64,000 nt of DNA from positions 20,224 to 84,223 of the forward strand of contig JAFYQQ010000017.1 of NCBI GenBank assembly GCA_017559845.1, in the 5' to 3' direction. Below, piece after piece: positions 37,222 to 62,111 of this stretch. The first letter of the stretch is position 1. Every line of letters begins with the position of its first letter. This DNA comes from Bacteroidaceae bacterium (GTDB lineage: Bacteria; Bacteroidota; Bacteroidia; Bacteroidales; Bacteroidaceae). The notes beneath the pieces are model-generated. The model was not told where the DNA came from. It made no database searches and saw only the letters and a list, made by a program, of their open reading frames with translations. The position numbers and the translations under genes were made by a program.

Positions 37222-37229
37222 TAATTTTG
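37222..37229 (+). promoter_or_regulatory. candidate -7 element TAATTTTG for the B12 operon
   Basis: TAnnTTTG match about 10 nt upstream of the riboswitch P1. Confidence 0.45.
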
Positions 37230-37235
37230 CAAACG

Positions 37236-37400
37236 AATCAACGGTTAAGGGAATCAGGTGAAAGTCCTGAACTGTCCCGCAGCTGTAAGTCTCGTTACAT
37301 TCCGAACGACATATTTGAGCCACTGGTAATACCGGGAAGGTGGTCGGACGGAAGAGACAAGTCAGAAGACCTGCCGTATATGATTTGCCAAGGCAAGTTT
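37236..37400 (+). promoter_or_regulatory. cobalamin (AdoCbl) riboswitch
   Basis: Core AAGGGAATCAGGTGAAAGTCCTGAACTGTCCCGCAGCTGTAAG ... GAGCCACTGG ... GGGAAGG ... and B12 box AGTCAGAAGACCTGCC. P1 is ACGG (37241)/CCGT (37374-37377). Followed by B12 transport genes. Confidence 0.88.
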
Positions 37401-49712: not shown

Positions 49713-49786
49713 GGCCCCGTAGCTTAGCTGTATAGAGCGTCAGATTCCGGTTCTGAAGGTCAAGGGTTAGAATCCCTTCGGGGTCA
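49713..49786 (+). tRNA. tRNA-Arg (anticodon CCG)
   Basis: Hand-folded cloverleaf. Acceptor GGCCCCG/CGGGGTC (one G-T pair), D stem GCTT/GAGC, anticodon stem TCAGA/TCTGA with loop TTCCGGT, T arm AAGGG-TTAGAAT-CCCTT, discriminator A. 74 nt, CCA not encoded. Confidence 0.9.
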
Positions 49787-49787
49787 C

Positions 49788-49981: not shown

Positions 49982-50003
49982 CGGTAGAATAAAAATAAAT
50001 TTT

Positions 50004-50264
50004 ATGAAAACAGCCAATTACACTGATTTTAGATCAAATCTGAAAGGTTACATGGATGCCGTCATTGATGATTGCGAAACCGTTATCATCAATCGGGGTA
50101 AAGACACAGGAGTTGTACTGATTTCGCTGGAAGAATATAATACCCTTAAAGAAACGGAATACATCATGTCCTCGCCAGAAACCATGGAAGCAATCCGCAA
50201 AGGAGACGAGGAAATAAAGAACGGCAAAGGTATCAAAGTGGAACTTGAGGATTTATGGAAATAA
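50004..50264 (+). CDS. Phd/YefM-family type II antitoxin
   Basis: ATG 50004 (MKTANYTDFRSNLKGYMDAVIDDCETVIINRGKD...LISLEEYNTLKETEYIMSSPE). Overlaps the toxin gene by 10 nt. Confidence 0.88.
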   Translation: MKTANYTDFRSNLKGYMDAVIDDCETVIINRGKDTGVVLISLEEYNTLKETEYIMSSPETMEAIRKGDEEIKNGKGIKVELEDLWK

Positions 50265-50527
50265 TCTTATTGGAACAAGCCCAAAAAGACCGTGATTACT
50301 GGAAGAAAACAGGAAACAAAGCCATAATGAAGCGGATAACTGCCTTATTAAAAGACATTATGGAACATCCGTATACAGGAATGGGAAAGCCAGAAGCTTT
50401 GCGATACGAATTGGCCGGCAAATGGTCAAGAAGGATCAATTCCGAACACCGCCTGATCTATTCTGTAAACGAGGACATAATCACCGTCTATGTATTTTCC
50501 ATGAGATACCATTATTCCAAGAAATAA
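50255..50527 (+). CDS. Txe/YoeB-family type II toxin (mRNA interferase)
   Basis: 90 aa. ...GMGKPEALRYELAGKWSRRINSEHRLIYSV..DIITVYVFSMRYHY matches the YoeB pattern. Confidence 0.88.
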   Translation: MEIILLEQAQKDRDYWKKTGNKAIMKRITALLKDIMEHPYTGMGKPEALRYELAGKWSRRINSEHRLIYSVNEDIITVYVFSMRYHYSKK

Positions 50528-50540
50528 TATGGGGCGAGCC

Positions 50541-50852
50541 TCATAAAATAGTCAGACTCACCCGACGACCAAGCCCTTCAAATATCCTGAACAAGGTTGT
50601 CAGCTGAACATCAGCCTTACCATTTTCCAAACGGGAAATATAAGTCTTTTTCGTGCCTATCTTTTCAGCCAGTTGTTCTTGCGTCAATCCAGCACGAATA
50701 CGTTCTTCTTTGAGCGTTTGGGCAAGGCAAAAAGCCTCAGTCTCTTTGTCAAATTCCTCGCGAGACGGTGTACCAATCTCTCCAAAATCCGCATTAAGCA
50801 ATTCGTCAAGATTGCTACAATTCATTATCGCATTTTCTCTCTTCTTATTCAT
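50541..50852 (-). CDS. XRE-family helix-turn-helix antitoxin (HigA-like)
   Basis: 103 aa. HTH RIRAGLTQEQLAEKIGTKKTYISRLENGK. Lies immediately downstream of a RelE/HigB-like gene (3-nt gap). Confidence 0.85.
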   Translation of the reverse strand: MNKKRENAIMNCSNLDELLNADFGEIGTPSREEFDKETEAFCLAQTLKEERIRAGLTQEQLAEKIGTKKTYISRLENGKADVQLTTLFRIFEGLGRRVSLTIL

Positions 50853-50855
50853 AAC

Positions 50856-51194
50856 TTATTCCTTATCTCTAAAATACTCCTTCATTAACATTTCTGCTTT
50901 TTCTATTTCCCCTAAAGGTGTCTTTTGACTTTTTTTCTGGAATCCATTAAAAAGGATGACCAACGAGCCCTTATCAAAGCAACAGAACACTCTGAATATA
51001 TCACCGCCAAATTCTATTCTGATTTCAAATAACCCTTTCTTTCCTTCAATGCTTCTGAGAATTGAACAAGGCAATCTATCAAGCGTTTGCAACCATATTA
51101 ATGTTTGAGCTATTTTTCGTCTCACTTTTTCAGACTGATCCACATAAAACTCATTAAAATAGTGCTTATAAAACCTTATCTCTCTTTTTGCCAT
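50856..51194 (-). CDS. RelE/ParE-superfamily toxin (HigB / Gp49-like)
   Basis: ATG at 51194 (MAKREIRFYKHYFNEFY...) preferred over TTG 51215. Motifs GLFEIRIEFGGDIFRVFCCFDKGSLVILFNGFQKKSQKTP. The toxin-first order is typical of HigBA. Confidence 0.8.
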   Translation of the reverse strand: MAKREIRFYKHYFNEFYVDQSEKVRRKIAQTLIWLQTLDRLPCSILRSIEGKKGLFEIRIEFGGDIFRVFCCFDKGSLVILFNGFQKKSQKTPLGEIEKAEMLMKEYFRDKE

Positions 51195-51419
51195 TTCAAT
51201 CAAATTACACTGCAAAGTTAACGAAATAGTTTACCTTTTCAAAATGTTTTGCATATTTTCTGCGTCTTTTATACTGAAAATGTTGTCCGCCAATCAAAAT
51301 AGGCTCTGTTTTACTCTTAAAAAAAGGAATATAACAAGCCCATTATTTATTAAGCCAAGGACTAATGAGCATTAAAGTTCTCTTCCATCACATAACCCCA
51401 GGCCATACTGTTGCAATGA

Positions 51420-51463
51420 CAAACGGATACTGGTGCAAAGCCAAACGCACCAGCATCCGTTTG
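51420..51463. repeat. 17-bp-stem hairpin
   Basis: CAAACGGATACTGGTGC - AAAGCCAAAC - GCACCAGCATCCGTTTG (one mismatch). No flanking T-run. Confidence 0.6.
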
Positions 51464-51550
51464 CTGTAGCACTGCACTAATAATCCCAACAGATACAACT
51501 GAAATTGTTTTTAAAGCTAACTGAAAAAGTTTTCCGTCAACGATAAAAAG

Positions 51551-51646
51551 TTTGTTCCAAGGTTTGGAACATACGTTTCATAGTTTGGAACGTATGTTTC
51601 ATTATTTGGAATGTACGTTTCATCTGTTGGAACATAACATTCACCA
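51551..51646. repeat. iteron-like array: four direct 21-bp repeats plus one inverted half-site
   Basis: TTTGGAAC-type cores start at 51563, 51584, 51605 and 51626, an exact 21-nt period. GTTCCAA at 51554-51560 forms a palindrome with the first unit. Each unit contains GGAACrTAyGTTTC. Confidence 0.85.
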
Positions 51647-51899
51647 CAGAGAAAAAACTTTTTCACCACTGTGCTACAACAATTTAAGCACTATGTTTCA
51701 GAAATGTTATAATGTTGGCGTTTTTGGAACATATTAATAGTTCGCTTTGCTGTACGTTTCAAACTAAAGAACCAGCCAATAATATGCCATAGTCGTGCTA
51801 TATATGCGTCAAATCTATAAATGATGTTTTTTTTACATTTTTTATGTAATATTTTCATCGTATTAAAAATTTTTACGATATTTGCATACAGATTCTCAA

Positions 51900-52287
51900 A
51901 AATCTGGACTGATTTGTTAACAAAAACGAGATTTTACCTTACAATAAGTCCAGAAGCTCACGCCGAACAAACGGTAGTAGGTTATAACGACCAATCTATT
52001 AGTGGTAAGGGTGGGATGAGGATTAAATTTTATTAAGGCGTTTACATGCGTCTTGACTTTGACGTCTAAGAATCTCGCAAATTCGAACGGTATTGTCAGA
52101 GCAAGGCAACGGTAGATGTCCTCGGGATGTGTATAATATACACTCTTTAACCGATACATTGTATTGTGTTAAAGACAAAGTATATTTTCATATCGGCGTG
52201 GGCTTCGACGTTGCTCGTTCTTCAATACCGGGCAATGCGAGAGCCTTTAGACGTGGAACGGGTAACAGAATGTTCCACGCTTTTTTT
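51900..52287 (+). ncRNA. candidate structured non-coding RNA (ORF-less segment ending in an intrinsic terminator)
   Basis: No credible ORF. Locally higher G+C than neighbouring island DNA, by eye. Several local stems (CTGGACT 51904 / AGTCCAG 51948). Ends at the terminator 52252-52287. The 5' boundary is not determined. Confidence 0.3.
52252..52287 (+). terminator. intrinsic terminator
   Basis: CGTGGAAC (52252-52259) / GTTCCACG (52272-52279), 12-nt loop, then C + T7 (52281-52287). Confidence 0.7.
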
Positions 52288-52475
52288 GCCCCAAAATTAG
52301 TATGGACTTTCTGTTGAAAATACGGTGCTAATTTAAAATAACTATATGGAGCAAAAAAATGTTTAAAATCGGTCAGGGCTATGAAGCTGAATCAATTGTT
52401 TTTGTATTTCAGTTTAAACTTCATGTCACGACAAGGAACTGTATTGAGTATTAACAATCTAAATTATATTTCATT

Positions 52476-53567
52476 ATGAACCGAGGAAAACTTATTATCA
52501 AATTAGCAATTTTGATTGCTTATTTATTGTTTGCTGGCTTTAGTGCCTATTTTACAGCTTCATCATTATCGCTCAATCTTTTAAATGGGACGAATCTATG
52601 GATTGTATATATTTTGGTACTAATTGTAGCAATTGTTGCTGGTTGGTGCCTTTCCAATGTTATCGAAGAACTACAGAAAACCATCGGGGCATCTAAAACC
52701 ACATTTGCATTCAGTTTAGTCGGATTCTTAATCTTTTGGTCGTTCAGTTTTCTAACTAATGTACATTATTTCTTTGTTGAAAAACACGGTTACTCAATTT
52801 TGACAAAAGAATTGGCAAGCGCAAAGGAATATATAAACGAAAATACGACAAAGAGCAATAAAGAAATTGAAGACAAGAAAAACACTGCTCAAATGGCTAT
52901 TTGTGCTTCCATCCAAGCAAATATTGATGCTTTTAAAAGAGAATTGGAAAACACAATGGACCGAAGAGAAGGATTTGGAGAGGCTTGTATCAATATTCTT
53001 AATTCAACAGAAATCATTCTCACCAAAGATTCTAAAATATATGACGACAAAAACGAATACGTTGTATTTGATGACACTCGAGATGAAGGTGATCGCGGTG
53101 TAACCCAACGAAACAGATTTCCTGAATTGTTTACCAAGTATACTGCTCGAATTACTCAACACAGGAACACCAAACTGGATGTCATAAAAAACTTTTATGA
53201 CAGAAAGAAAGACGACAACACCGAGTTAATAGACTTATTAGGAATCATTGAAGAATTAGAAACACACCACCTTCCTTTAGTATTGAAAGATGGGTCAATA
53301 AATGCATTCTACAAATATCATGATCAACAAAATGGCAAGGTGATAGCCAAAATGCCAAACGATTACAATGATTATTGTGTTACCAAAACTGATGGGAAAA
53401 TCATAAGTTACAATGTATATCCTGCTCAACGAATGTTTGATACAATGTCTGTCTGGAGCGACATTGTTTCAGGAAGGTTAGGCGACATGACCATGTTACA
53501 ATGGATTGTGATTTCGTTGATTTTTGACATTTTATCTTTTATACTTTTTTATTTATTCCGTAAATAA
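52476..53567 (+). CDS. polytopic membrane protein (3 N-terminal TM + about 250-aa soluble region + C-terminal TM), cassette gene 1
   Basis: 363 aa. Hydrophobic segments LIIKLAILIAYLLFAGFSAYF, LWIVYILVLIVAIVAGWCL, FAFSLVGFLIFWSFSFL and MLQWIVISLIFDILSFILFYLF. No recognisable catalytic motif. Confidence 0.7.
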   Translation: MNRGKLIIKLAILIAYLLFAGFSAYFTASSLSLNLLNGTNLWIVYILVLIVAIVAGWCLSNVIEELQKTIGASKTTFAFSLVGFLIFWSFSFLTNVHYFFVEKHGYSILTKELASAKEYINENTTKSNKEIEDKKNTAQMAICASIQANIDAFKRELENTMDRREGFGEACINILNSTEIILTKDSKIYDDKNEYVVFDDTRDEGDRGVTQRNRFPELFTKYTARITQHRNTKLDVIKNFYDRKKDDNTELIDLLGIIEELETHHLPLVLKDGSINAFYKYHDQQNGKVIAKMPNDYNDYCVTKTDGKIISYNVYPAQRMFDTMSVWSDIVSGRLGDMTMLQWIVISLIFDILSFILFYLFRK

Positions 53568-53588
53568 TAACATTAAAAATATTATAAT

Positions 53589-54551
53589 ATGCCTAGATTA
53601 ACAACAAATGAGACTTCTCAACAACCCGTAAATGTAGAAGCATCCGCAATGAACGAAGAGAGCGTATCAAATGATATACCACAGTTAAACAACGAACGTA
53701 TGCCACAAGAATCAGAAACATACGAAACCAATAATATTTATATTGGAAGACTCGCAACTCCTAAAATAGAAAACGCCAAAGTTCCTGTAGTGGTTTTTTT
53801 CGGTCCTCCGTCAAGTGGAAAATCAATGATATTGGTTCGTCTGGCAAAGTTTTTACGTAATGAAGGTTATACCATACAGACAGACCCAACATTCCTTAAT
53901 ACAAAAAAGTATCAAGAAGACTGCCAAAAATTTAATGACAAATTAAATACAAATATTGCTTTAGATGGCTCTGTAGAATTCTTATTAGTCAATATCTATG
54001 ACAAAAATGGAAAAGAGATAGCCAAACTATTGGAAGCACCCGGTGAAGATTTTTACACTACCGACCCTGAAAAAATTAGAGCAGGTAAAAATCAGCGAGT
54101 AGAGCCATATTTGGCCACAATTATGACGAGCAACAATCCAAAATCATATGTTGTGCTGCTTGACTTGGATTCAGAAGTTTCATTCCGCAACGATTCTTAT
54201 CATAGGGATTCTTACGCACAAAGATTTTTGAACTATTTTTTACCTCCAATAAATCTGAAAAGGGACCGAATCATACTTCTTTATAACAAAATCGACAAAA
54301 CTCCGTTTGGGACAATCAACGAATGCCAAAATTCAAAGGAAGCTAAAGAAGATGCCAAAATATTTTACAAACAGATTTTTGCAAAATTAACAGGAGGATT
54401 CTTTAATTTGGAACAATTTGCATTTAAAACCTTCTGTACCGGAATGTTTTCATCCCATTTTGATGATTCTGGCGAAGAATACCAAATCTACAACGTTGCA
54501 AGCGACACCTATCCCCGTGAACTATGGCAAGAAATTGTAAAAAAATGGTAA
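53589..54551 (+). CDS. P-loop NTPase with Ras-like/TRAFAC GTPase motif order (candidate GTPase), cassette gene 2
   Basis: 320 aa. G1/Walker A VVVFFGPPSSGKS (aa 72-79). G3-like KLLEAPGED (aa 145-153, Glu in place of the usual Asp). G4 RIILLYNKIDK (NKxD, aa 233-236). About 55 low-complexity N-terminal residues. Confidence 0.6.
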   Translation: MPRLTTNETSQQPVNVEASAMNEESVSNDIPQLNNERMPQESETYETNNIYIGRLATPKIENAKVPVVVFFGPPSSGKSMILVRLAKFLRNEGYTIQTDPTFLNTKKYQEDCQKFNDKLNTNIALDGSVEFLLVNIYDKNGKEIAKLLEAPGEDFYTTDPEKIRAGKNQRVEPYLATIMTSNNPKSYVVLLDLDSEVSFRNDSYHRDSYAQRFLNYFLPPINLKRDRIILLYNKIDKTPFGTINECQNSKEAKEDAKIFYKQIFAKLTGGFFNLEQFAFKTFCTGMFSSHFDDSGEEYQIYNVASDTYPRELWQEIVKKW

Positions 54552-54555
54552 TATT

Positions 54556-56013
54556 ATGGAGATAATCATTCATGGCAAACCCAATGCGGGAAGTTCTAAA
54601 TCAACTTCCCCTTCCGACACACTATCCCAAAAAATCATAGAGGAATTCTTCAACAGAAGAGATGAAATCACTGATGAAGAAGCCTTAATTGTTGAAGCAA
54701 GAAATTGGAAAGGGAAATGGAATAGTGTCTACACATATAAAAAATCCAATTTGAGGGAAATAAGCGAAAATGTTGGCCGTTCAACTTATTTTGCCATATC
54801 CTTAATTATTCCGCAAAGTTATTGCTGTATGGTTAGCGAGGTTCTCTCTTTGCTGAAAAAAATGTACAATGAGTCTATTGTTGGTACTTATATATCAGAT
54901 AAAGGAAAATATATTGTACAAAACTTTGATGACTCTTTCGCTTTTGAAAAATTAGTAAAGAAAATCAAAGACTCTCATGTCAATCTGGAAGAAGACTTCG
55001 ATCAGAAATTTATTCCATGCCAAGAGTTCAACAATACTGTAAGATACAGCATCATGGATTGTGACTCAAAGGCTTTTGTGCAAACTCTTAGAAAAGTGGG
55101 AAGAATAGTAATCACAGAGACAGAAAAAACAAAAGACGAGAAGATTGCCAACACAAATGGTTATCTTGTCCAGAACCAGCAGCTACAGACAGAACTTTCT
55201 GATAAAAAAGCAGAAATTGAGCGGTTACATTCAAAGTTAAAGAAATGGGAAGATGATTTCTCTAAATCAACTTCAACAAATAACGGGAAAATAGAAGAAC
55301 TTAATAAAAGGATAAAAATTCTTTCCGCAGAAAAAGAAAAACTACAAGCTGAAAAGAATACACTTTGCGAATCCAATAAAGCTGTAAAGAATAAATTGGA
55401 TTCAATCGCATCTTTATTAGGGGTATCTGGAATTAACAAAGTTCCTGAAAACAAACAGCAATCAACCAGAAAACCTCATAACACTCTTATTTTTGGATGT
55501 TTATTAGTAAACACGCTGCTTGTATTAATACTTATCTTTTTACAAATATTTAATATAAAAGATTTCATAGCAGAAGGAACTTCTGTAGAAACTGGCAATT
55601 ATACAGAACTACAAAACAAAATAGAAAGTCTTGAAACAGCCATCAATGATAAGTTTGGGACTTTATACACATTAATATCAGCTAACAAACCAGCATCAAC
55701 TGAAGGCACAGGATCCTCATCTGAACCAGAGCAGTCCCCAAAAGACGTAGATTGTGAGCTACAAATCTTTCAAGATAATAGACCTGTAGAAATAAGTTCT
55801 ATAGATAGAGAAAAAACCATTTTGATTAATGTAAAAAAACATGATGGATATGATTTTTTCACATCAAACCTATCAGAGGAGAACGTAAACCTTTTAAAAA
55901 GAGGTGAACAATTTAACTTAGGGAAAAAGGAACAAGGGCAAGCCATTATAATAAATTACAGATCTAACGACAAGACAAAATTAAACGAAAAAAATAGTCT
56001 AACATTTAATTGA
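54556..56013 (+). CDS. bitopic coiled-coil membrane protein, cassette gene 3
   Basis: 485 aa. N-terminal globular part of about 190 aa, long heptad-rich segment (LQTELSDKKAEIERLHSKLKKWEDD...EELNKRIKILSAEKEKLQAEKNTL), single TM LIFGCLLVNTLLVLILIFLQIF, C-terminal domain of about 150 aa. Confidence 0.7.
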   Translation: MEIIIHGKPNAGSSKSTSPSDTLSQKIIEEFFNRRDEITDEEALIVEARNWKGKWNSVYTYKKSNLREISENVGRSTYFAISLIIPQSYCCMVSEVLSLLKKMYNESIVGTYISDKGKYIVQNFDDSFAFEKLVKKIKDSHVNLEEDFDQKFIPCQEFNNTVRYSIMDCDSKAFVQTLRKVGRIVITETEKTKDEKIANTNGYLVQNQQLQTELSDKKAEIERLHSKLKKWEDDFSKSTSTNNGKIEELNKRIKILSAEKEKLQAEKNTLCESNKAVKNKLDSIASLLGVSGINKVPENKQQSTRKPHNTLIFGCLLVNTLLVLILIFLQIFNIKDFIAEGTSVETGNYTELQNKIESLETAINDKFGTLYTLISANKPASTEGTGSSSEPEQSPKDVDCELQIFQDNRPVEISSIDREKTILINVKKHDGYDFFTSNLSEENVNLLKRGEQFNLGKKEQGQAIIINYRSNDKTKLNEKNSLTFN

Positions 56014-56021
56014 TTTATTTT

Positions 56022-56555
56022 ATGAAAATCCGCAAAATAGTCTCTATATTTTCTTTTGCCACTTTGCTATTCTCATGTGGCTCAAATGAGAATAAATATG
56101 ATCCGTATGCAATTGCAAGTGACACAACAGCAATAAACAGTTCGTATTTTGAAGTTGATTTCAAGAAGACCGATTCAAATTTGAAAACAGTTCATATCAA
56201 ACTGAATGACACAAACGGATATGATGCATTATTTGACACGGGATGCTCCGGCATGCTTATTTCTTCGCTTGAATTAATTGAGTTGCTGAAGAATAACACC
56301 ATCAATACAGATGATTATTTGGGTGATGCGACTGTGACTATTGCAGATGGCACCCAAGTTAAACACCCAATGTATAATATTCGCGAAGTGAAATTAGTCG
56401 ATAAAAATGGGAAAGGACATTCTGTAAGGGATATTGTTGCAACAGTTGTGGATAATCCTGGTGCAGAAATCCTTATAGGCTCTTCCATTATAGACAATTT
56501 AGCAAAGAAATCTTACACGGTTGATTTGAAGAAAAAGGTAATTAGATTTGAATAA
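56022..56555 (+). CDS. retropepsin-like (clan AA) aspartic protease lipoprotein, cassette gene 4
   Basis: ATG 56022 preferred over TTG 56010. Lipobox FATLLFSCGSNE. Active-site-like ALFDTGCSGMLIS (D-T-G) and C-terminal AEILIGSSIIDNL (ILG flap/dimer motif). Confidence 0.7.
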   Translation: MKIRKIVSIFSFATLLFSCGSNENKYDPYAIASDTTAINSSYFEVDFKKTDSNLKTVHIKLNDTNGYDALFDTGCSGMLISSLELIELLKNNTINTDDYLGDATVTIADGTQVKHPMYNIREVKLVDKNGKGHSVRDIVATVVDNPGAEILIGSSIIDNLAKKSYTVDLKKKVIRFE

Positions 56556-57673
56556 TGAAACCTATAGTATATTTCTTTGGCTCTTTGCCTGGAGGACTTT
56601 GCGCTTATCCACAAGACCATACGAAGTTAATTTTCGAAGACTTCATAAAAAGGTCTAAAAACGCATTGCAGATTGTTGTTCATCGCATGGATAATCTGCT
56701 ATATTATGGATATGTCCGTAAATTTAACGGTAATTACTTCGGTATTTGTGTTTGTCTTGATAGAATCTATAATGACATCGGACTATTATTTAACATCTTC
56801 GACAACATATTTGCCCAGACACTTCAACAAGGTGATATATTAAAGTTTTCTTCTGAAAAAAGGATTGAATGGGCCTTAAAAACGTTTGCGTCTGAAAACG
56901 TAGCCATAAATGAATATACAAGAAAAATAATAGAAAGGCTTAACCTTTCTGACTGCAATAGTATTGAAGTACCTCCAGCCGATTTCTCAATATCTATAAA
57001 TGATTGTATTGAAATCAGCCTTGAATCGTCAAAAGAAGAAATTTTAAATGTCACTAAACGCTATTCAAACATCTATATAGTCAAGACAAATGATGAAATA
57101 GAAAGAATAACGGGATTTACGCGGCTAATAGAAGGTAAAGAAAAAGAAATATCAAGATTAAAACAAGAAGTAAGTTCACAGAAAATAAAAAACTTAGAAC
57201 TCTCGTCCCAACTAATAAAAGCAAAAGCGCTACAAAAAAACATGGTTTGGGTTAGTGTTTTAAGTATTATTACATTTATTTTCGGCACGATTTTGTGGAA
57301 CAAGGTACTTTTCCCCTCTGAAGTCACTCATTATAAAACCAAAGACTTTATCTATTATGGTCCGCTAAAGGACAAAAAGCCTCACGGAATTGGTGTGGCT
57401 TTTTATCCCCAGGATGATGTGGACGGACGGAAATTTTACATCGGGAATTTTGAGAATGGCATAAGGCAGGACTCTACAGCAATGCTATACTATCGGGAAG
57501 GCGACTATTTTTATGGCAAAATGAAAGATGACAAATGGGAAAATGGTTTGCTTTACAAATGTTCTGACGGAACTTATTTCAGGGGTTCGTTCCAAGAGAA
57601 CATTCCTTATAATGGTGTATGGTATGACCATGTAAAAAGATATAAATCTGTAGAAGGAGAAATAGTGTATTAA
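56555..57673 (+). CDS. bitopic coiled-coil membrane protein with C-terminal MORN repeats, cassette gene 5
   Basis: 372 aa. The start overlaps the upstream stop (TAATG). Coiled coil EGKEKEISRLKQEVSSQKIKNLELSSQLIKAKA, TM MVWVSVLSIITFIFGTILW, about four MORN-like repeats (YYGPLKDKKPHGIGVAFY; FYIGNFENGIRQD; YFYGKMKDDKWENGLLY; YFRGSFQENIPYNGVWY). Confidence 0.7.
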   Translation: MKPIVYFFGSLPGGLCAYPQDHTKLIFEDFIKRSKNALQIVVHRMDNLLYYGYVRKFNGNYFGICVCLDRIYNDIGLLFNIFDNIFAQTLQQGDILKFSSEKRIEWALKTFASENVAINEYTRKIIERLNLSDCNSIEVPPADFSISINDCIEISLESSKEEILNVTKRYSNIYIVKTNDEIERITGFTRLIEGKEKEISRLKQEVSSQKIKNLELSSQLIKAKALQKNMVWVSVLSIITFIFGTILWNKVLFPSEVTHYKTKDFIYYGPLKDKKPHGIGVAFYPQDDVDGRKFYIGNFENGIRQDSTAMLYYREGDYFYGKMKDDKWENGLLYKCSDGTYFRGSFQENIPYNGVWYDHVKRYKSVEGEIVY

Positions 57674-57731
57674 CTCGCATTGTGTTGTAAGTCTGATTTA
57701 AAGCATCATTTGATAACATTGGGGATTTGTG

Positions 57732-59822
57732 ATGAAGAAGATTATTTTTGTATTGCTTTATTGCCTATGCGTTGTCTGCAATAGTAACGCACAAAAAATA
57801 CCATCAATAGACAGAAGTCGGTTTGAAGTTTCCACAAAAAACATTTCATTTTCCGGTGATGGCGGTTCAAAAACAATTACCGTGAAAGCAGATCAGCCAT
57901 GGTCGGTTAAAGAATACCCAGCCTCATGGGCAAGCCTTACCAGATACAAAGAGAGGATTGAAGTAAAAGTAAACGGTAACAATTTTAATGAAAGCCGTAA
58001 TACTTCTTTCTCAATCACTTCTTCAGGAAAGACTATTACCATAGGTATCAAACAAGATGAAATGCCTATATTGGAAATCAATCCAAATAATGCTAATTTT
58101 ACCGCAACCGGTGGAACTCAAATATTTACTATAAAGTCCAATATTTCTTGGGAAATAGGAGAAAACACCAACTCTTGGATACACTTAGCAAAAAGTGGGA
58201 ATACACTTACTCTTAAAGCTGACTTAAATCCTCAATCAATAAATAGAGAAGGCGAATTTACTATATTGTCGAGAGATAAAAGCATTAGAATTTATGTTAT
58301 GCAATCTGGAATCTCTCCAAACTTTGATATATCCTCTACCTCTGCAAATTTTACGGCAAGTGGGGGAAGTAAAACGTTTACTGTAACTGCAACTGCGCCT
58401 TGGAACATTGAAACCGGGACAACAACATGGGGACATTTGACAATAAACGGAAATGAGCTAACACTAAAAGTTGATGCAAACAACCAAACATCTAATAGAG
58501 ATGATTATTTTACAATAAAATCTGGGGCTAAAAGCATAAGGGTTAATATAACCCAATTAGGCCTTACACCAAAATTTGGAATATCCTCTACGTCTGCTAA
58601 TTTTACGGCAGCTGGTGGTTCGCAAACATTTACTATTAATTCAAATTCATCATGGAGTATTGAAACACAACCAAAATCATGGGGACATTTGACCAAGAAT
58701 GGAAAAACGCTAACACTTAATGTAGACAGAAACAACCAGACTTCAAGCAGAGATGATTATTTCACCATTAGGTCAGGCAGCAAAAGGATTAGAGTTGATA
58801 TAACCCAGGCTGGTGCTTCGCCAAAATTTGACATATCCACTACATCGGCATATTTTGATGAAAATGGTGGAATAAAGAAGTTCACCATATCATCTAATCA
58901 AACATGGCACATAGATGTCAATACTACATCTTGGGGACGTTTATACAAAGATGGCAACACCCTCACTCTTAAGGTTGAAAAAAACACACAAACAGAATCC
59001 CGAAGAAATTTCTTCGTCATAAAATCAGAAGACAAGAAAATCCGGGTAGACATAACGCAGGCTGCGGGTTCTCCGTATTTACTTGTAAATGGGAGGGCGT
59101 CGGATACAGATGTAAACCTGAAACAATACGGAGGAACAGAAACAATATCCGTGAACACCAATGTTGAAAACTATGAAATTCTCAACAAACCGTCTTGGTG
59201 CTATATCACAGAAAAAACTCCTTCTGGTTTTGTATTGGGCTACATTAAAAACTCCAGCAGTTACCCAAGAAGCGGCAGTATGAGAGTTATTGCTGATGGC
59301 AAAATAGTGCAAGTTAATCTCAACCAAGAACCCAATTACCGTAAAATGCTCAGAAGGAGAAATGGCGGTTGGTTGAATATGGCCATTGGTTTCGAAGCAG
59401 GATACGGTAGCGCTTGGTATGCTAATAGCATTGTTGGATTAAGGTTGGGTAATTATAAGGATGTGCTTCAATTTGAAATGGGTATAACACCTGGTATTGC
59501 CGGTATTAACTATGGAGATGAATATGAAGATGACTATGCGTTCCATTTGCCAGTGTACAGTTCTTTGAAATTATCTACTAAAAGAGGAAAGTTTTACTTA
59601 AAACTTGGTGGTACATATAATGTCATCTATGACAAATATTACGAAGGCAAGTATTCATTGCGTGCAGGTTTTGGTTCGGCATGGAAACATTTTGAGTGGG
59701 ACTGGGCATCGTTTCAATTGAATGCGCCTACAGATTACTGGTATGGTTCCAAGTTTTCCGACATATTAAACGAGCCAGACATGATGTTCGGCATGAGAAT
59801 GGCATGGTATATTACACGGTAA
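57732..59822 (+). CDS. secreted protein with six BACON-like repeats and a C-terminal beta-barrel-like domain, cassette gene 6
   Basis: ATG 57732 preferred over GTG 57729. Signal peptide ...CNSNAQK. Six repeats of about 80-84 aa with the pattern F(T/S)AxGGxxTFT(V/I)xSNxxWxI...WGHLT.NG.TLTL.VD.N....R.DYFTI.SG.K.IRV.ITQ. The last 155 aa or so are rich in alternating aromatic/Gly residues (GFEAGYGSAWYANS...MRMAWYITR). Confidence 0.7.
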   Translation: MKKIIFVLLYCLCVVCNSNAQKIPSIDRSRFEVSTKNISFSGDGGSKTITVKADQPWSVKEYPASWASLTRYKERIEVKVNGNNFNESRNTSFSITSSGKTITIGIKQDEMPILEINPNNANFTATGGTQIFTIKSNISWEIGENTNSWIHLAKSGNTLTLKADLNPQSINREGEFTILSRDKSIRIYVMQSGISPNFDISSTSANFTASGGSKTFTVTATAPWNIETGTTTWGHLTINGNELTLKVDANNQTSNRDDYFTIKSGAKSIRVNITQLGLTPKFGISSTSANFTAAGGSQTFTINSNSSWSIETQPKSWGHLTKNGKTLTLNVDRNNQTSSRDDYFTIRSGSKRIRVDITQAGASPKFDISTTSAYFDENGGIKKFTISSNQTWHIDVNTTSWGRLYKDGNTLTLKVEKNTQTESRRNFFVIKSEDKKIRVDITQAAGSPYLLVNGRASDTDVNLKQYGGTETISVNTNVENYEILNKPSWCYITEKTPSGFVLGYIKNSSSYPRSGSMRVIADGKIVQVNLNQEPNYRKMLRRRNGGWLNMAIGFEAGYGSAWYANSIVGLRLGNYKDVLQFEMGITPGIAGINYGDEYEDDYAFHLPVYSSLKLSTKRGKFYLKLGGTYNVIYDKYYEGKYSLRAGFGSAWKHFEWDWASFQLNAPTDYWYGSKFSDILNEPDMMFGMRMAWYITR

Positions 59823-59854
59823 TTGACAGATGGAACAATCCAAACTTTTAGATT

Positions 59855-61318
59855 ATGATGATAAAAGTGCGAAGAATATTACTATTAGGCAGCATAGCCG
59901 CAATGATGGCTTGCACGCCAACAAAGCAATCCACTATAGATGAGGCTTTACAAACAAAGGTGGATTCTGTCTTACAAAACAAGATGGGCGAAATCAATGC
60001 CGTTTCCGGGCAAGTTATTGTAATGGAAGTGCAGACAGGTGAGATTAAGGCTATGGTGGGTGATGGCATTAGCCAGGAATCCGGGCTAACCCGTACTGCA
60101 TCTTTATTGGCAGCTTTAGAAACAGGCAGAGTGAAATTGTCTGATACGGTGGATGTTGGTGAGGGCGTTTACATGGTTCATGGCAAACCTTTATCTGACC
60201 ACAATTGGCGCATGGGCGGATTTGGCAAGATAACCACTTTGGAAGGTTTGATGCTTAATTCTTACATTGCACTCTACAAGAACATTGAAAGAGCATTTGA
60301 AGAAGAGAACACCTACTTTGGTATGCTTAACAAAATGTGTTACGGTCAACCAGAAAGCATTGAAAGGCTGGACAGTTTGAAAGCGTCTTACTTTGAAACT
60401 CCTGAGGACAGTAGTGCATTAGCATGGTCTTGCATTGGACATAATCAGCGTATTGCACCGATTCAAATGCTCACTTTCTATAATGCCATTGCCAATGGCG
60501 GCAAGATGGTGAAGCCCATGCTTTACAAAGGTGAAACGGAGGTTATCAATCCGCAAATAGCAAGTAAAGCCAACATTGACAGCCTACAAATGGCACTGGT
60601 TCATGTGGTAACGGAAGGTCTGGGCAAACCTGCACAATCCGAGAAAGTACAAGTTGCAGGATTTGGCGGCGGTTTTCCTATCTCTACAAAGGAAGACAAT
60701 TCAGAGGGCAGGATTAACACTGTATTTTCTGTGGGTTTTTGTGGTTACTTCCCAGCAGAAAACCCGAAGTTCTCTATTATTGTGAGCATGAATAAAAAGG
60801 GATATCCCGCAAATAGCTATTTAATGGCTGGCAGTGTTTTTAAGGAGATTGTGGATTATATGGTTGATTCGGGAGATACTACTGAAACAAATGATACAAC
60901 ATCATTAACAGATAGTCTTCCTAAAAAATCTTTGAATGACATTCGATTTGCTGGATGGACAGAGAAAGATTGGTTGGACAATGAATATATTAAGACACTA
61001 AGAAATCATATTGATGCTTGTCTTCAAGGCAAGATATCGGATTCGCAGTTTGAGAAATATAAGGATGAATTATCGGGAAAATTTATGATTGGTAGTATAG
61101 AACCTTATATTATGGGTGGAGTATTCATACAATTTTGTTTTATTGATAGACCCAATAAAATATTCTCAACTTGGGTGTATAGCAAAGTTGACGAGGAAAC
61201 AGAAACCGTCTACGATTATGAATGTAATGGACTTGAAATGGAAGAATATGAATCGGATTTGACCAAAGAAGAAATGATAAGAATCTCAGAAGAGCATCCT
61301 GAACAGAAACTTTGGTAA
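59855..61318 (+). CDS. PBP transpeptidase-like lipoprotein lacking all three catalytic motifs, with extra C-terminal domain, cassette gene 7
   Basis: Lipobox IAAMMACTP. PBP-like GQVIVMEVQTGEIKAMVG and IAPIQMLTFYNAIANGG. The expected SxxK position reads SGLTRTASLLAALE, SxN reads MLNSY, and KTG reads VAGFGGG. The C-terminal 130 aa or so are unrelated to PBPs. Confidence 0.65.
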   Translation: MMIKVRRILLLGSIAAMMACTPTKQSTIDEALQTKVDSVLQNKMGEINAVSGQVIVMEVQTGEIKAMVGDGISQESGLTRTASLLAALETGRVKLSDTVDVGEGVYMVHGKPLSDHNWRMGGFGKITTLEGLMLNSYIALYKNIERAFEEENTYFGMLNKMCYGQPESIERLDSLKASYFETPEDSSALAWSCIGHNQRIAPIQMLTFYNAIANGGKMVKPMLYKGETEVINPQIASKANIDSLQMALVHVVTEGLGKPAQSEKVQVAGFGGGFPISTKEDNSEGRINTVFSVGFCGYFPAENPKFSIIVSMNKKGYPANSYLMAGSVFKEIVDYMVDSGDTTETNDTTSLTDSLPKKSLNDIRFAGWTEKDWLDNEYIKTLRNHIDACLQGKISDSQFEKYKDELSGKFMIGSIEPYIMGGVFIQFCFIDRPNKIFSTWVYSKVDEETETVYDYECNGLEMEEYESDLTKEEMIRISEEHPEQKLW

Positions 61319-61483
61319 TGGCAATAAGGGGAATTATACTTATAAAAATACGTCACCCTCAAAAAAACATCACATCATCATACTTCACATCTGAAAATAT
61401 ATCGCTATATTTGCAGGTGGAAGTCTGTTGGCAACGGCCAATACCTGATTTTCTTGTACGATTTCATAGCCAATAATGCAAAG

Positions 61484-61723
61484 ATGGAAGAACGAAGAAG
61501 CATATCGAAAGAACAAATAATAATGGCTTACGTGGCAACATGTATTGAGACAACAGCCAGATACTTGAAAACCGATTACAAGAATGTTTTCGAAAGGATG
61601 GAGCGTGTTGGCATGATTGACAAATACATTTTGCCCAATTACGAACCATTGCATAGCGAAAGCCGGGATGTGCTTGCCGAACGATTGGTTGAATGTTTAA
61701 CAAACTGGGAGGAGCAGGTATGA
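61484..61723 (+). CDS. DUF3791-like small protein
   Basis: ATG 61484 preferred over TTG 61454. Pattern MAYVATCIETTARYL...VFERMERVGMIDKYILPNYEPLHSES matches my recollection of DUF3791. Confidence 0.55.
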   Translation: MEERRSISKEQIIMAYVATCIETTARYLKTDYKNVFERMERVGMIDKYILPNYEPLHSESRDVLAERLVECLTNWEEQV

Positions 61724-61859
61724 ATAAAAAATGATACCATCCATCTTTATATTGCAGGACTGATGGATTTGAAATCTACACTAAAAGAACTTTCCAAGCA
61801 TCAACCCAATAACCAAATGTGCTTACTCAATCAAAGTATTACAGACAAATATCTAGTAT

Positions 61860-62111
61860 ATGACGGAACAGAAGAATTATGATAATCCGACAAGATCTCC
61901 TGTGATTCAAGAAATCATTATGAGTAACCGCATTGGAGCGATAGCTGTATCACTGGCAGAACGACTCTCAATAAATACGGTCACTGCCCTAAAAATGTTT
62001 TATCGCAGCGACACTTGCGCCCGTCTACACGACAAATCCACCGGTCTGTATCTGTACGGAGATTTGTATGTCTCGGACGAATTCATACTTGAAATGCAAA
62101 ATAGGCAGTGA
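61860..62111 (+). CDS. DUF3791-like small protein (second copy; alternative start 61920)
   Basis: IGAIAVSLAERLSINTVTALKMFYRSDTCARLHDKSTGLYLYGDLYVSDEFILE. Confidence 0.5.
   Translation: MTEQKNYDNPTRSPVIQEIIMSNRIGAIAVSLAERLSINTVTALKMFYRSDTCARLHDKSTGLYLYGDLYVSDEFILEMQNRQ

Follow-up and report, generated by a model that had tools for sequence, protein, structure and literature searches.

What kind of system is encoded by the seven co-directional genes at positions 52476-61318 of a 64,000-nucleotide (nt) stretch of Bacteroidaceae bacterium DNA (contig JAFYQQ010000017.1; the whole stretch is called the window here), and do these genes belong together? A first-pass annotation of the locus had described an operon-like, envelope-spanning cassette centred on a Ras-like GTPase, and had conjectured a GTPase-switched, protease-coupled module for envelope sensing or conflict. 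Here we show that five of the genes, G1 to G5, recur in a fixed order across Bacteroidales. They encode a predicted GTPase (G2), two membrane proteins (G3 and G5) with paralogous and possibly longin-like cytoplasmic domains, a polytopic membrane protein (G1) and a predicted periplasmic protease (G4). To the reading that G1-G5 form an inner-membrane complex which couples periplasmic events to a cytoplasmic GTPase switch we would give slightly less than an even chance.

Five of the seven genes form a conserved unit

All seven open reading frames (ORFs) announced by the first-pass annotation are present on the + strand. The junctions from G1 to G7 measure 21, 4, 8, -1, 58 and 32 nt, as it had given, taking ATG 56022 as the start of G4 and ATG 57732 as that of G6. 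A scan covering one genome per species identified 25 loci with G2 relatives. When all seven proteins were compared with these loci by tblastn, the order G1-G2-G3-G4-G5 was found to be kept in every genome locus with sufficient sequence. Because this order recurs in every sufficiently long related locus, the directly observed co-linearity goes far beyond chance.

The G1-G5 unit (52476-57673) was found across at least four clades within Bacteroidales, its carriers including Prevotella, Muribaculaceae, Paludibacteraceae, Bacteroides acidifaciens and Cryptobacteroides. Clade 1, at 50-73% identity to the window, includes Prevotella, Xylanibacter caecicola, Bacteroidales bacterium 52_46, Paludibacteraceae and Sodaliphilus, while clade 2, at 33-38% identity, holds Bacteroides acidifaciens DSM 15896, Cryptobacteroides and others. 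A third clade appeared in two metagenome loci (L048 and L105), the G2 of which is ~31% identical, and a relative of G1 at 23% identity led to a fourth, deep variant (L157). This variant keeps G1, G2, G3 and G5, with hhalign probabilities of 99.8% for G2, 95.9% for G3 and 98.1% for G5. Its position 4 is occupied by an unrelated secreted coiled-coil protein, and downstream lie a leucine-rich repeat (LRR) protein and an S8 (subtilisin-type) peptidase, the latter two genes downstream of position 4.

The expected co-occurrence of the GTPase, both coiled-coil proteins and the retropepsin is therefore seen, in conserved order, across Bacteroidales. The dead penicillin-binding protein (PBP) encoded by G7 had been expected to travel with them and does not: tblastn found no G7 homologue in any other cassette locus, so that G7 stands beside the cassette in this genome only. 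Homologues of G6 were found at position 6 only in L001, L002, L003 and L006. Since G6 is shared by few loci and G7 by none, the conserved unit is one of five genes, not seven, and it is made up of an invariant four-family core and variable periplasmic accessories. The operon-like grouping proposed earlier thus holds for G1-G5, for G6 in some loci and for G7 at this locus alone, and the envelope-spanning picture shrinks to a five-gene core of inner membrane and periplasm. The flanking genes vary by genome (galK/EF-G, gyrB, sigma/TonB genes, DUF3987, AAA_14/DUF4143), which indicates that the cassette moves as a block. Altogether, G1-G5 is a self-contained, horizontally moving module restricted to Bacteroidales.

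Scans of the seven proteins against Pfam, NCBIfam, PADLOC and PHROGs gave family assignments for G4, G6 and G7 only. PADLOC-DB v2, its candidate systems included, returned noise-level matches (E-values of at least 0.002), and profile searches of Protein Data Bank (PDB) sequences with the G1, G2, G3 and G5 families returned only P-loop or coiled-coil noise. No tblastn match for G2 was found in 50,697 phage records and no relative of G2 among IMG/VR contigs; 72,556 plasmids gave neither a blastn match for the G1-G5 DNA nor a tblastn match for G1. Similarly, literature searches found no paper describing this cassette. In line with the earlier statement, the cassette fits no characterised secretion, pilus, polysaccharide utilization or defence system, and it fits no known phage or plasmid one either. 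Of the four families in its core, three are orphans; the fourth, G1, has a remote and transitive tie to the uncharacterised DUF4407.

G2 is a predicted TRAFAC-class GTPase

G2 (53589..54551, + strand) encodes a soluble protein of 320 amino acids (aa). The motifs GPPxSGKS, LLEAPGE (an ExPGE, G3-like motif), LLYNKxD and FCTG are invariant in 27 G2 homologues. In the window the P-loop reads GPPSSGKS, which fits GxxxxGK[ST], and the [NT]KxD pattern of guanine specificity is likewise present. The AlphaFold2 (AF2) model, with a predicted local distance difference test (pLDDT) score of 77.6, shows a G-domain fold with a beta2-beta3 hairpin ahead of the G3 motif, a small C-terminal beta extension, and disorder over residues 1-54. 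Its best Foldseek matches were the EF-Tu/eEF1A G domain, EngB/YsxC, Nog1, Arf, atlastin and GPN (E 1e-6 to 1e-4), with a probability of 1.0 for the EF-Tu, EngB, Nog1, Arf and atlastin G domains. Taken together, these results identify G2 as a predicted TRAFAC-class GTPase with intact nucleotide-binding motifs. Its family comprises 232 clusters in a set of 5.8 billion proteins, every one of them called hypothetical.

The narrower label Ras-like did not survive. No Pfam or NCBIfam GTPase model scored above its cut-off on G2 (small_GTP reached 13.2 bits vs a cut-off of 42.5), and the silence of the Pfam Ras, Arf and Roc profiles leaves the label unsupported. A Ras-like small GTPase was also rejected on the G3 motif (ExPGE, not DxxGQ), on size and build (320 aa with insertions and a beta extension vs a compact domain of ~170-200 aa), and on structure, the best matches being EF-Tu and EngB, not Ras. 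Of the Ras-like GTPase placed at the centre of the locus, the GTPase stands on its invariant motifs and fold, and the Ras likeness falls.

G3 and G5 are paralogous membrane proteins with a predicted longin-like domain

G3 (54556..56013, 485 aa) and G5 (56555..57673, 372 aa), both on the + strand, encode type-II bitopic proteins of one layout: a cytoplasmic N-domain, a coiled coil, one transmembrane (TM) helix (residues 311-329 in G3 and 230-248 in G5) and a periplasmic C-domain. Comparison of their N-terminal ~180 residues with hhalign gave 93.6% (E 2e-7 over 152 columns). At the level of sequence profiles the two are thus demonstrably true paralogues in their N-domains, which adds kinship to the shared layout that had been noted before.

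The AF2 model of G5 (pLDDT 87) comprises a longin-like domain at residues 4-129 (pLDDT ~90), a small alpha/beta subdomain at 136-176, one continuous helix at 183-252 that includes the coiled coil and the TM segment, and periplasmic MORN-repeat hairpins at 259-371. In a Foldseek search with this model, the top 44 matches were MORN proteins, with E-values down to 1e-6. The MORN repeats that had been read at the end of one bitopic protein are therefore recovered as a MORN fold at the C-terminus of G5, on which the Pfam MORN model was silent. A weak PHROGs match (phrog_7324, function unassigned, E 5e-6) covers residues 224-354, mostly the MORN region. In residues 4-129 of the model, the order of secondary-structure elements, beta-beta-alpha-beta-beta-beta-alpha(-alpha), is that of the longin topology. 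The first non-MORN matches were the VAMP7 longin domain (4afi and 4b93) and an Asgard protein (8yqg, the longin domain of a Lokiarchaeota Roadblock-Longin protein), at probabilities of 0.97-0.99, E-values of 0.03-0.04 and TM-scores of 0.47-0.53, which is of marginal significance; GATOR1 and a PAS-like CpxA domain came next in the list. With moderate confidence, we consider the modelled N-domain of G5 to be longin-like, and that of G3 likewise by paralogy.

The periplasmic domains behave differently from the cytoplasmic ones. Within clade 1, G3 is 41-59% identical in its N-domain vs 12-29% in its periplasmic C-domain. In clade 2, the ORFs of three G3 orthologues (L013, L014 and L018) gave tblastn matches to the G6 BACON repeats, and the G3 orthologue of L157 carries Flg_new_2 in the C-terminal position. 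Similarly, beta-rich domains of unrelated kinds stand in place of the G5 MORN domain in L004, in L010 and throughout clade 2. Conservation inside together with directly observed turnover outside is the pattern expected of receptors. The MORN and BACON outer domains suggest recognition of envelope or host/phage glycans; if so, the cassette may affect phage susceptibility, surface architecture or colonisation.

G1 is a possible remote relative of DUF4407, and G4 a predicted lipoprotein protease

G1 (52476..53567, + strand) encodes a polytopic inner-membrane protein of 363 aa. Its four hydrophobic segments correspond to three N-terminal TM helices and one C-terminal TM helix, between which lies a charged helical domain of ~235 aa; on positive-inside counts, this large domain is predicted to be periplasmic. 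An exhaustive HMMER search collected 105 family representatives at 50% clustering, all of 345-390 aa and none named, and residues S23, N95, H97, G166 and D351 do not vary among 78 diverse members. The Pfam model DUF4407 (PF14362) matched 2 of these 78 representatives (best E 3.2e-7) and left 76 without a match, and a distant family member, P0388, carries a precomputed Pfam DUF4407 match. On the strength of these distant members, G1 appears to be an outlying DUF4407-like protein; the link is remote and transitive, the window G1 itself having no Pfam or PDB match. DUF4407 received only passing mentions in the literature, with no function described. Matches of G1 family members to SieB, holin and major facilitator superfamily proteins were discarded as noise from TM composition.

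G4 (56022..56555, + strand, 177 aa) scored 26.1 bits against Asp_protease_2 (cut-off 24.3). The catalytic Asp and the Gly of its D(T/S)G site are invariant in 21 orthologues, in which the motif D(T/S)GC is kept; within the ILIG motif the G is invariant, and the L and I are nearly so. A signal peptide is followed by a lipobox, L-x-S/A-C, the Cys of which is invariant in the same orthologues. G4 is thus a predicted retropepsin-like aspartyl protease and lipoprotein, as the first-pass annotation had proposed from its D-T-G site.

The leader RNA of the cassette is shared with NusG-paralogue operons

A structured, leader/attenuator-like RNA of ~100 nt that ends in a U-run lies at 52190..52288 (+), 187 nt upstream of G1. 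Its nucleotide identity is 73-81% upstream of cassettes whose proteins are only ~35% identical. An alignment of 10 sequences holds two mutually exclusive folds, each with compensatory changes. The first consists of a closing helix and an 11-bp inner helix, and the second of a 5' hairpin and a classic terminator; the U-run follows in both. Rfam 15 gave no match to this RNA at gathering score or at E up to 1. With a covariance model (R1), the RNA was found in 17 of 23 cassette loci, the remaining 6 being without it.

A metagenome scan yielded at least 120 exact-pattern matches, and the operons behind them were surveyed in loci L037-L116. Cassette genes stood downstream of the RNA in only ~3 of the 59 informative loci. 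The next ORF was instead, in 41 of 63 loci, one of ~244 aa with a NusG/KOW (UpxY-type) C-terminal part; its start as called lies ~47 nt downstream of the RNA, and it heads a long operon. A NusG-like gene also stands upstream of the cassette in B. acidifaciens and, apparently, in L011. The metagenome pattern and the B. acidifaciens gene order together indicate that the RNA is a shared leader/attenuator of NusG-paralogue operons, and that the cassette is one of its cargoes. That the RNA is a component specific to the cassette was rejected, since its metagenome matches mostly precede NusG-like genes. An ops-like motif in the RNA, TGCGAGAGC, which is loosely like the YGCGNAGCR ops hairpin published for UpxY/opsX leaders of capsule operons (PMC11685472), was also discarded, as it is not conserved across the alignment. 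The hairpins and U-run are consistent with pause or termination control (PMC11685472).

Several genes were seen near this RNA in the surveyed loci. Tyrosine integrases lie ~1 kb upstream of it in some loci, such as L038, and a phage-lysozyme-like gene lies ~0.6 kb upstream in L037. The operon headed by the RNA and a NusG-like gene in L061 includes a homologue of an SrfB-like virulence factor. In L082 and L099 the RNA stands directly upstream of large proteins that, read by eye, look like LRR/BspA proteins.

The RNA belongs to a 1.26-kb non-coding stretch upstream of the cassette, which also holds tandem repeats at 51562-51636 (a 21-bp unit, GTTTGGAACATACGTTTCATA, in 3.6 copies) and at 51405-51447 (a 22-bp unit in 2 copies). 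These repeats could be candidate protein-binding sites. When the whole stretch was compared with the other loci by blastn, only the RNA region matched. A scan for sigma-70 promoters found fewer sites than in shuffled sequence, this consensus being uninformative for Bacteroidales.

Accessory genes and genomic surroundings

G6 (57729/57732..59822, + strand) encodes a signal peptide followed by six repeats of ~84 aa that are visible in the sequence and were identified as BACON by Pfam (BACON, PF13004, E 1e-18; BACON_2, PF19190, E 8e-16). Its C-terminal tail of ~160 aa looks like an outer-membrane beta-barrel and has one sub-threshold match, to DUF6048 (E 0.02). Loci without a G6 homologue carry unrelated sixth genes, some with weak OMP_b-brl matches, and G6 is thus a lineage-specific accessory protein. 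G7 (59855..61318, + strand) encodes a lipoprotein that scored 80.8 bits against the PBP transpeptidase model PF00905. In an alignment with P. aeruginosa PBP3, SxxK (STVK) is replaced by G..R, SSN by NSY and KSG by FGG, so G7 has a predicted transpeptidase fold in which all three catalytic motifs are lost. A C-terminal extension of ~150 aa had no family match. For these two proteins, the first-pass reading of a signal-peptide protein with six BACON repeats and of a lipoprotein PBP fold devoid of catalytic residues was accurate.

The same is true of the AT-rich island in which the cassette had been placed. The GC content is 0.33-0.40 over ~50000-62000 (33-40% in the cassette genes) vs 0.50-0.56 in the flanks. 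A tRNA-Arg(CCG) gene lies at 49713-49787, and between it and the cassette are two toxin-antitoxin pairs, one at 50003-50527 (+) with a PhdYeFM antitoxin and a YoeB toxin, the other at 50541-51215 (-) with an HTH_3 antitoxin and a Gp49/HigB-like toxin; the Pfam annotation of both pairs was taken from an identical metagenome scaffold (L031). Among the window ORFs there was no integrase bounding the island, and a search for an att-like repeat of the tRNA 3' end bounding it found none. Directly after G7 comes a DUF3791 gene (61454-61723, +; E 3e-12), then two ORFs of 83 and 208 aa without family matches, after which the GC content returns to the level of the genome. Elsewhere in the window, and unrelated to the cassette, a cobalamin riboswitch (Rfam RF00174, 88 bits) lies at 37228-37392 (+), ~12 kb upstream of an ABC-type FecCD/Peripla_BP_2 cluster.

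Across 24 loci, the 114 nearest neighbour ORFs are mostly housekeeping genes, and many contigs of Bacteroidales bacterium 52_46 show the cassette in one and the same context. Defence-type neighbours are few (mad3/mad8, PDC-S01, OLD/AriA/GajA-type ATPases, DpdF and PDC-M56); residence of the cassette in defence islands is occasional, not the rule. AAA_14/DUF4143 ATPase genes occur no more than a few kb from the cassette in three loci whose contexts are otherwise unrelated (L030 18775-20115; L033 7173-8318; L157 5431-6705). In B. acidifaciens DSM 15896 (L020 5110-20041), the cassette lies inside a long co-directional array with the order leader RNA, NusG-like gene, 179-aa gene, GH13 gene, G1-G5 and M48-peptidase cluster. 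The GH13 gene product is a membrane-anchored multi-TM protein of 631 aa with a GH13 alpha-amylase domain, and 3' of G1-G5 there are genes of 197, 64, 104 and 470 aa, the last an M48 peptidase, followed by more. L030 is similar, with genes of ~197, 64, 100 and 470 aa after the cassette and the M48 peptidase last. The deep variant (L157 7548-17065; L158) is preceded by a 134-aa protein, the N-terminal sequence of which, read by eye, suggests a helix-turn-helix regulator.

A proposed GTPase switch and its alternatives

In the complex proposed above, we infer that G3 and G5 would join, by way of their longin-like domains and coiled coils, to form a platform anchored in the membrane. This platform would bind G2 and set its nucleotide state or its location, by analogy with the action of longin/Roadblock dimers on small GTPases (Mon1-Ccz1, GATOR1, FLCN-FNIP and MglB-MglA). 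The periplasmic MORN, BACON or other domains would sense a ligand, which could be a glycan, peptidoglycan or a foreign protein. G4 may trim or release the outer domains of G3 and G5 as a trigger or a reset, for which the Caulobacter pair PerP/PodJ offers a precedent. G1, with invariant polar residues in its TM helices, would act as a membrane partner or output element. Such a device could serve to survey the envelope, to engage in conflict or to control surface structures. The reading builds on the synteny of the five families and their tight or overlapping junctions, on the changing flanks that mark the cassette as a moving unit, on the invariant motifs and TRAFAC fold of G2, on the paralogous N-domains of G3 and G5 with their variable outer domains, and on the retropepsin site kept in 21 G4 orthologues. 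The earlier idea of GTPase-switched sensing gains from the predicted longin-like cytoplasmic domain of G3 and G5. Its protease coupling does not extend to all members, as position 4 of L157 holds an unrelated secreted protein in place of the retropepsin.

Several observations weigh against this reading. The longin call comes from one AlphaFold model with marginal Foldseek E-values (0.03-0.04), and a PAS-like domain, that of CpxA, is also among the matches of G5. No link to longin proteins was seen at the sequence level, Pfam being silent on G3 and G5; an hhalign comparison of the G5 family with human VAMP7 found no similarity (probability 0.4%), which makes the longin link a structural one only. 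Moreover, the GTPases known to work under longin/Roadblock platforms are Ras, Arf, Rab and MglA, to none of which G2 is close, and the deep variant L157 has no G4. The predicted periplasmic placing of the large G1 domain would leave little cytoplasmic surface for a GTPase, and G1 as the output is a guess; among the cassette proteins no recognisable effector domain was found. A more specific version of the proposal is a bacterial transmembrane receptor system: the two longin-type domains, each tethered to the membrane, would serve as a platform that controls a GTPase of their own and, with a DUF4407-like protein and a periplasmic protease, would make up a new device for envelope surveillance or immunity. 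Each of the two proteins would have the architecture longin, coiled coil, TM helix and swappable periplasmic sensor, a layout that recalls the longin SNAREs. We hold this version to be doubtful.

Two other functions can be set against a general sensing complex. The cassette may be an envelope-biogenesis or surface-structure module, that is, an inner-membrane machine, timed by its GTPase, for the placement, export or anchoring of glycans or proteins at the cell surface (the BACON/beta-barrel protein or capsule being candidate cargo), which would share its control by NusG-paralogue antitermination with other surface operons. One argument for this is the leader RNA, behind which a NusG/KOW-headed operon begins in 41 of 63 metagenome loci; another is the position of the cassette downstream of a NusG-like gene in B. 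acidifaciens and, apparently, in L011. The membrane-anchored GH13 protein encoded just upstream and in the same direction in B. acidifaciens, the BACON and MORN domains, and the weak outer-membrane barrel matches among the sixth genes fit as well, and the polar cluster of G1 at the periplasmic face of the membrane could, we infer, bind a lipid-linked substrate. However, the cassette is not accompanied by any conserved glycosyltransferase, flippase, Wzx/Wzy, type IX secretion or lipoprotein-export component, its sixth gene differs between loci, the leader is missing in 6 of 23 loci, and a patchy, island-like distribution is unusual for core envelope functions, so we rate this module as rather unlikely. 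A role in anti-phage or interbacterial conflict, in which variable outer domains detect an invader or envelope damage and the GTPase licenses G1 to depolarise or permeabilise the inner membrane in the style of abortive infection, draws on a different set of observations: the low-GC island beside a tRNA and two toxin-antitoxin pairs, insertion sites that differ per genome, sensor domains that diversify or are swapped, the invariant polar TM residues of G1, the recurrence of AAA_14/DUF4143 ATPases nearby, and some defence-type neighbours (mad3/mad8, PDC-S01, OLD/AriA/GajA-type ATPases, DpdF and PDC-M56). Against it stand the housekeeping majority among the 114 nearest neighbours, the unvarying surroundings of the cassette on many contigs of Bacteroidales bacterium 52_46, the failure of every cassette protein to match a PADLOC v2 model and the lack of a known toxic effector domain. 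The leader, too, is common to NusG-paralogue operons, a regulatory mode known from capsule operons (PMC11685472). A conflict function in this form therefore seems to us clearly unlikely.

The proposal that the locus is a remnant of a prophage, an integrative and conjugative element or a plasmid (with a role in morphogenesis, entry exclusion or transfer), or that unrelated genes lie together here by chance, is largely refuted and very improbable. An AT-rich island adjoining a tRNA would suit a mobile remnant, as would the weak phrog_7324 match of G5 (E 5e-6). No relatives turned up in the phage and IMG/VR collections searched with G2 or among the plasmids searched with G1 and the G1-G5 DNA, though, and neither an integrase nor an att repeat bounds the island; chance adjacency is excluded because the gene order is conserved across four clades.

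Significance and comparison with known systems

If the GTPase-switch reading is true, it describes a form of bacterial transmembrane signalling not described before, in which a GTPase is switched by membrane-anchored longin-like domains, and which works without a histidine kinase, Ser/Thr kinase, anti-sigma factor or cyclic nucleotide. Longin-type GTPase platforms are treated as a hallmark of eukaryotes and Asgard archaea. To our knowledge, the permuted Roadblock form (MglB) is the only one characterised in bacteria. The predicted pairing of a longin-like domain with a GTPase in a bacterial membrane receptor is thus unusual, and would provide a prokaryotic, non-Asgard precedent for regulation of GTPases by longin platforms. 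The cassette also gives a first functional lead on DUF4407-like proteins. Its carriers are abundant gut and rumen Bacteroidales, among them a cultured type strain, Bacteroides acidifaciens DSM 15896, and the leader RNA suggests that NusG-paralogue operons have in common a wider regulatory element not yet catalogued.

Compared with membrane-associated defence systems such as Zorya, Kiwa, Eleos/dynamin-like and the PADLOC candidate systems, the cassette is similar in being a multi-gene set that joins membrane proteins to an NTPase and in its island-like, patchy distribution, but it has no MotAB-like, KwaAB or dynamin architecture and no PADLOC v2 match. Its leader resembles the UpxY/opsX leaders of Bacteroides capsule operons in its position before NusG-paralogue genes and in its hairpins and U-run. 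The cassette RNA is, however, a single shared family of ~100 nt, whereas opsX elements are locus-specific and of ~40 bp, and most cassettes that have it lack a NusG-like gene next to it. G1 is laid out like DUF4407, with TM helices at the N-terminus and one more at the end, separated by a long helical stretch, although the window G1 does not match the model. In Caulobacter, the periplasmic retropepsin PerP cleaves the bitopic coiled-coil protein PodJ. The cassette likewise encodes a predicted periplasmic retropepsin-type protease and bitopic coiled-coil proteins with large periplasmic domains; it differs in that G4 is a predicted lipoprotein, its cleavage activity is hypothetical, and G3 and G5 are likened to PodJ by layout alone.

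The closest likenesses concern the predicted longin-like domains. As in the longin SNAREs (VAMP7, Sec22b and Ykt6), a longin-like domain, a coiled-coil helix and a TM helix on the C-terminal side follow one another in G3 and G5, and the VAMP7 longin domain is the best non-MORN Foldseek match of G5. Unlike these SNAREs, G3 and G5 have a folded domain on the periplasmic side of the membrane. A SNARE motif was detected in neither (a VAMP2 sequence match was insignificant, E 0.067), and there is no sign of membrane fusion. Longin and Roadblock domains act as GTPase platforms (PMC3521125; PMC10933270), and modules in which they are joined to small GTPases include MglA-MglB in bacteria and, in eukaryotes and Asgard archaea, Mon1-Ccz1, Ragulator-Rag, GATOR1, FLCN-FNIP and SRalpha-SRbeta. 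The cassette differs from these in several respects: G2 falls outside the Ras, Arf, Rab and MglA types, the domains that would make up the platform are N-termini of bitopic proteins with periplasmic domains, no sequence similarity was seen, Pfam and NCBIfam gave no Roadblock or MglA profile match to place it in the MglA-MglB group, and G1 and G4 have no counterpart. What it shares with them is a GTPase encoded beside two paralogous small alpha/beta domains of predicted longin topology, an arrangement that the logic of a heterodimeric platform would fit.

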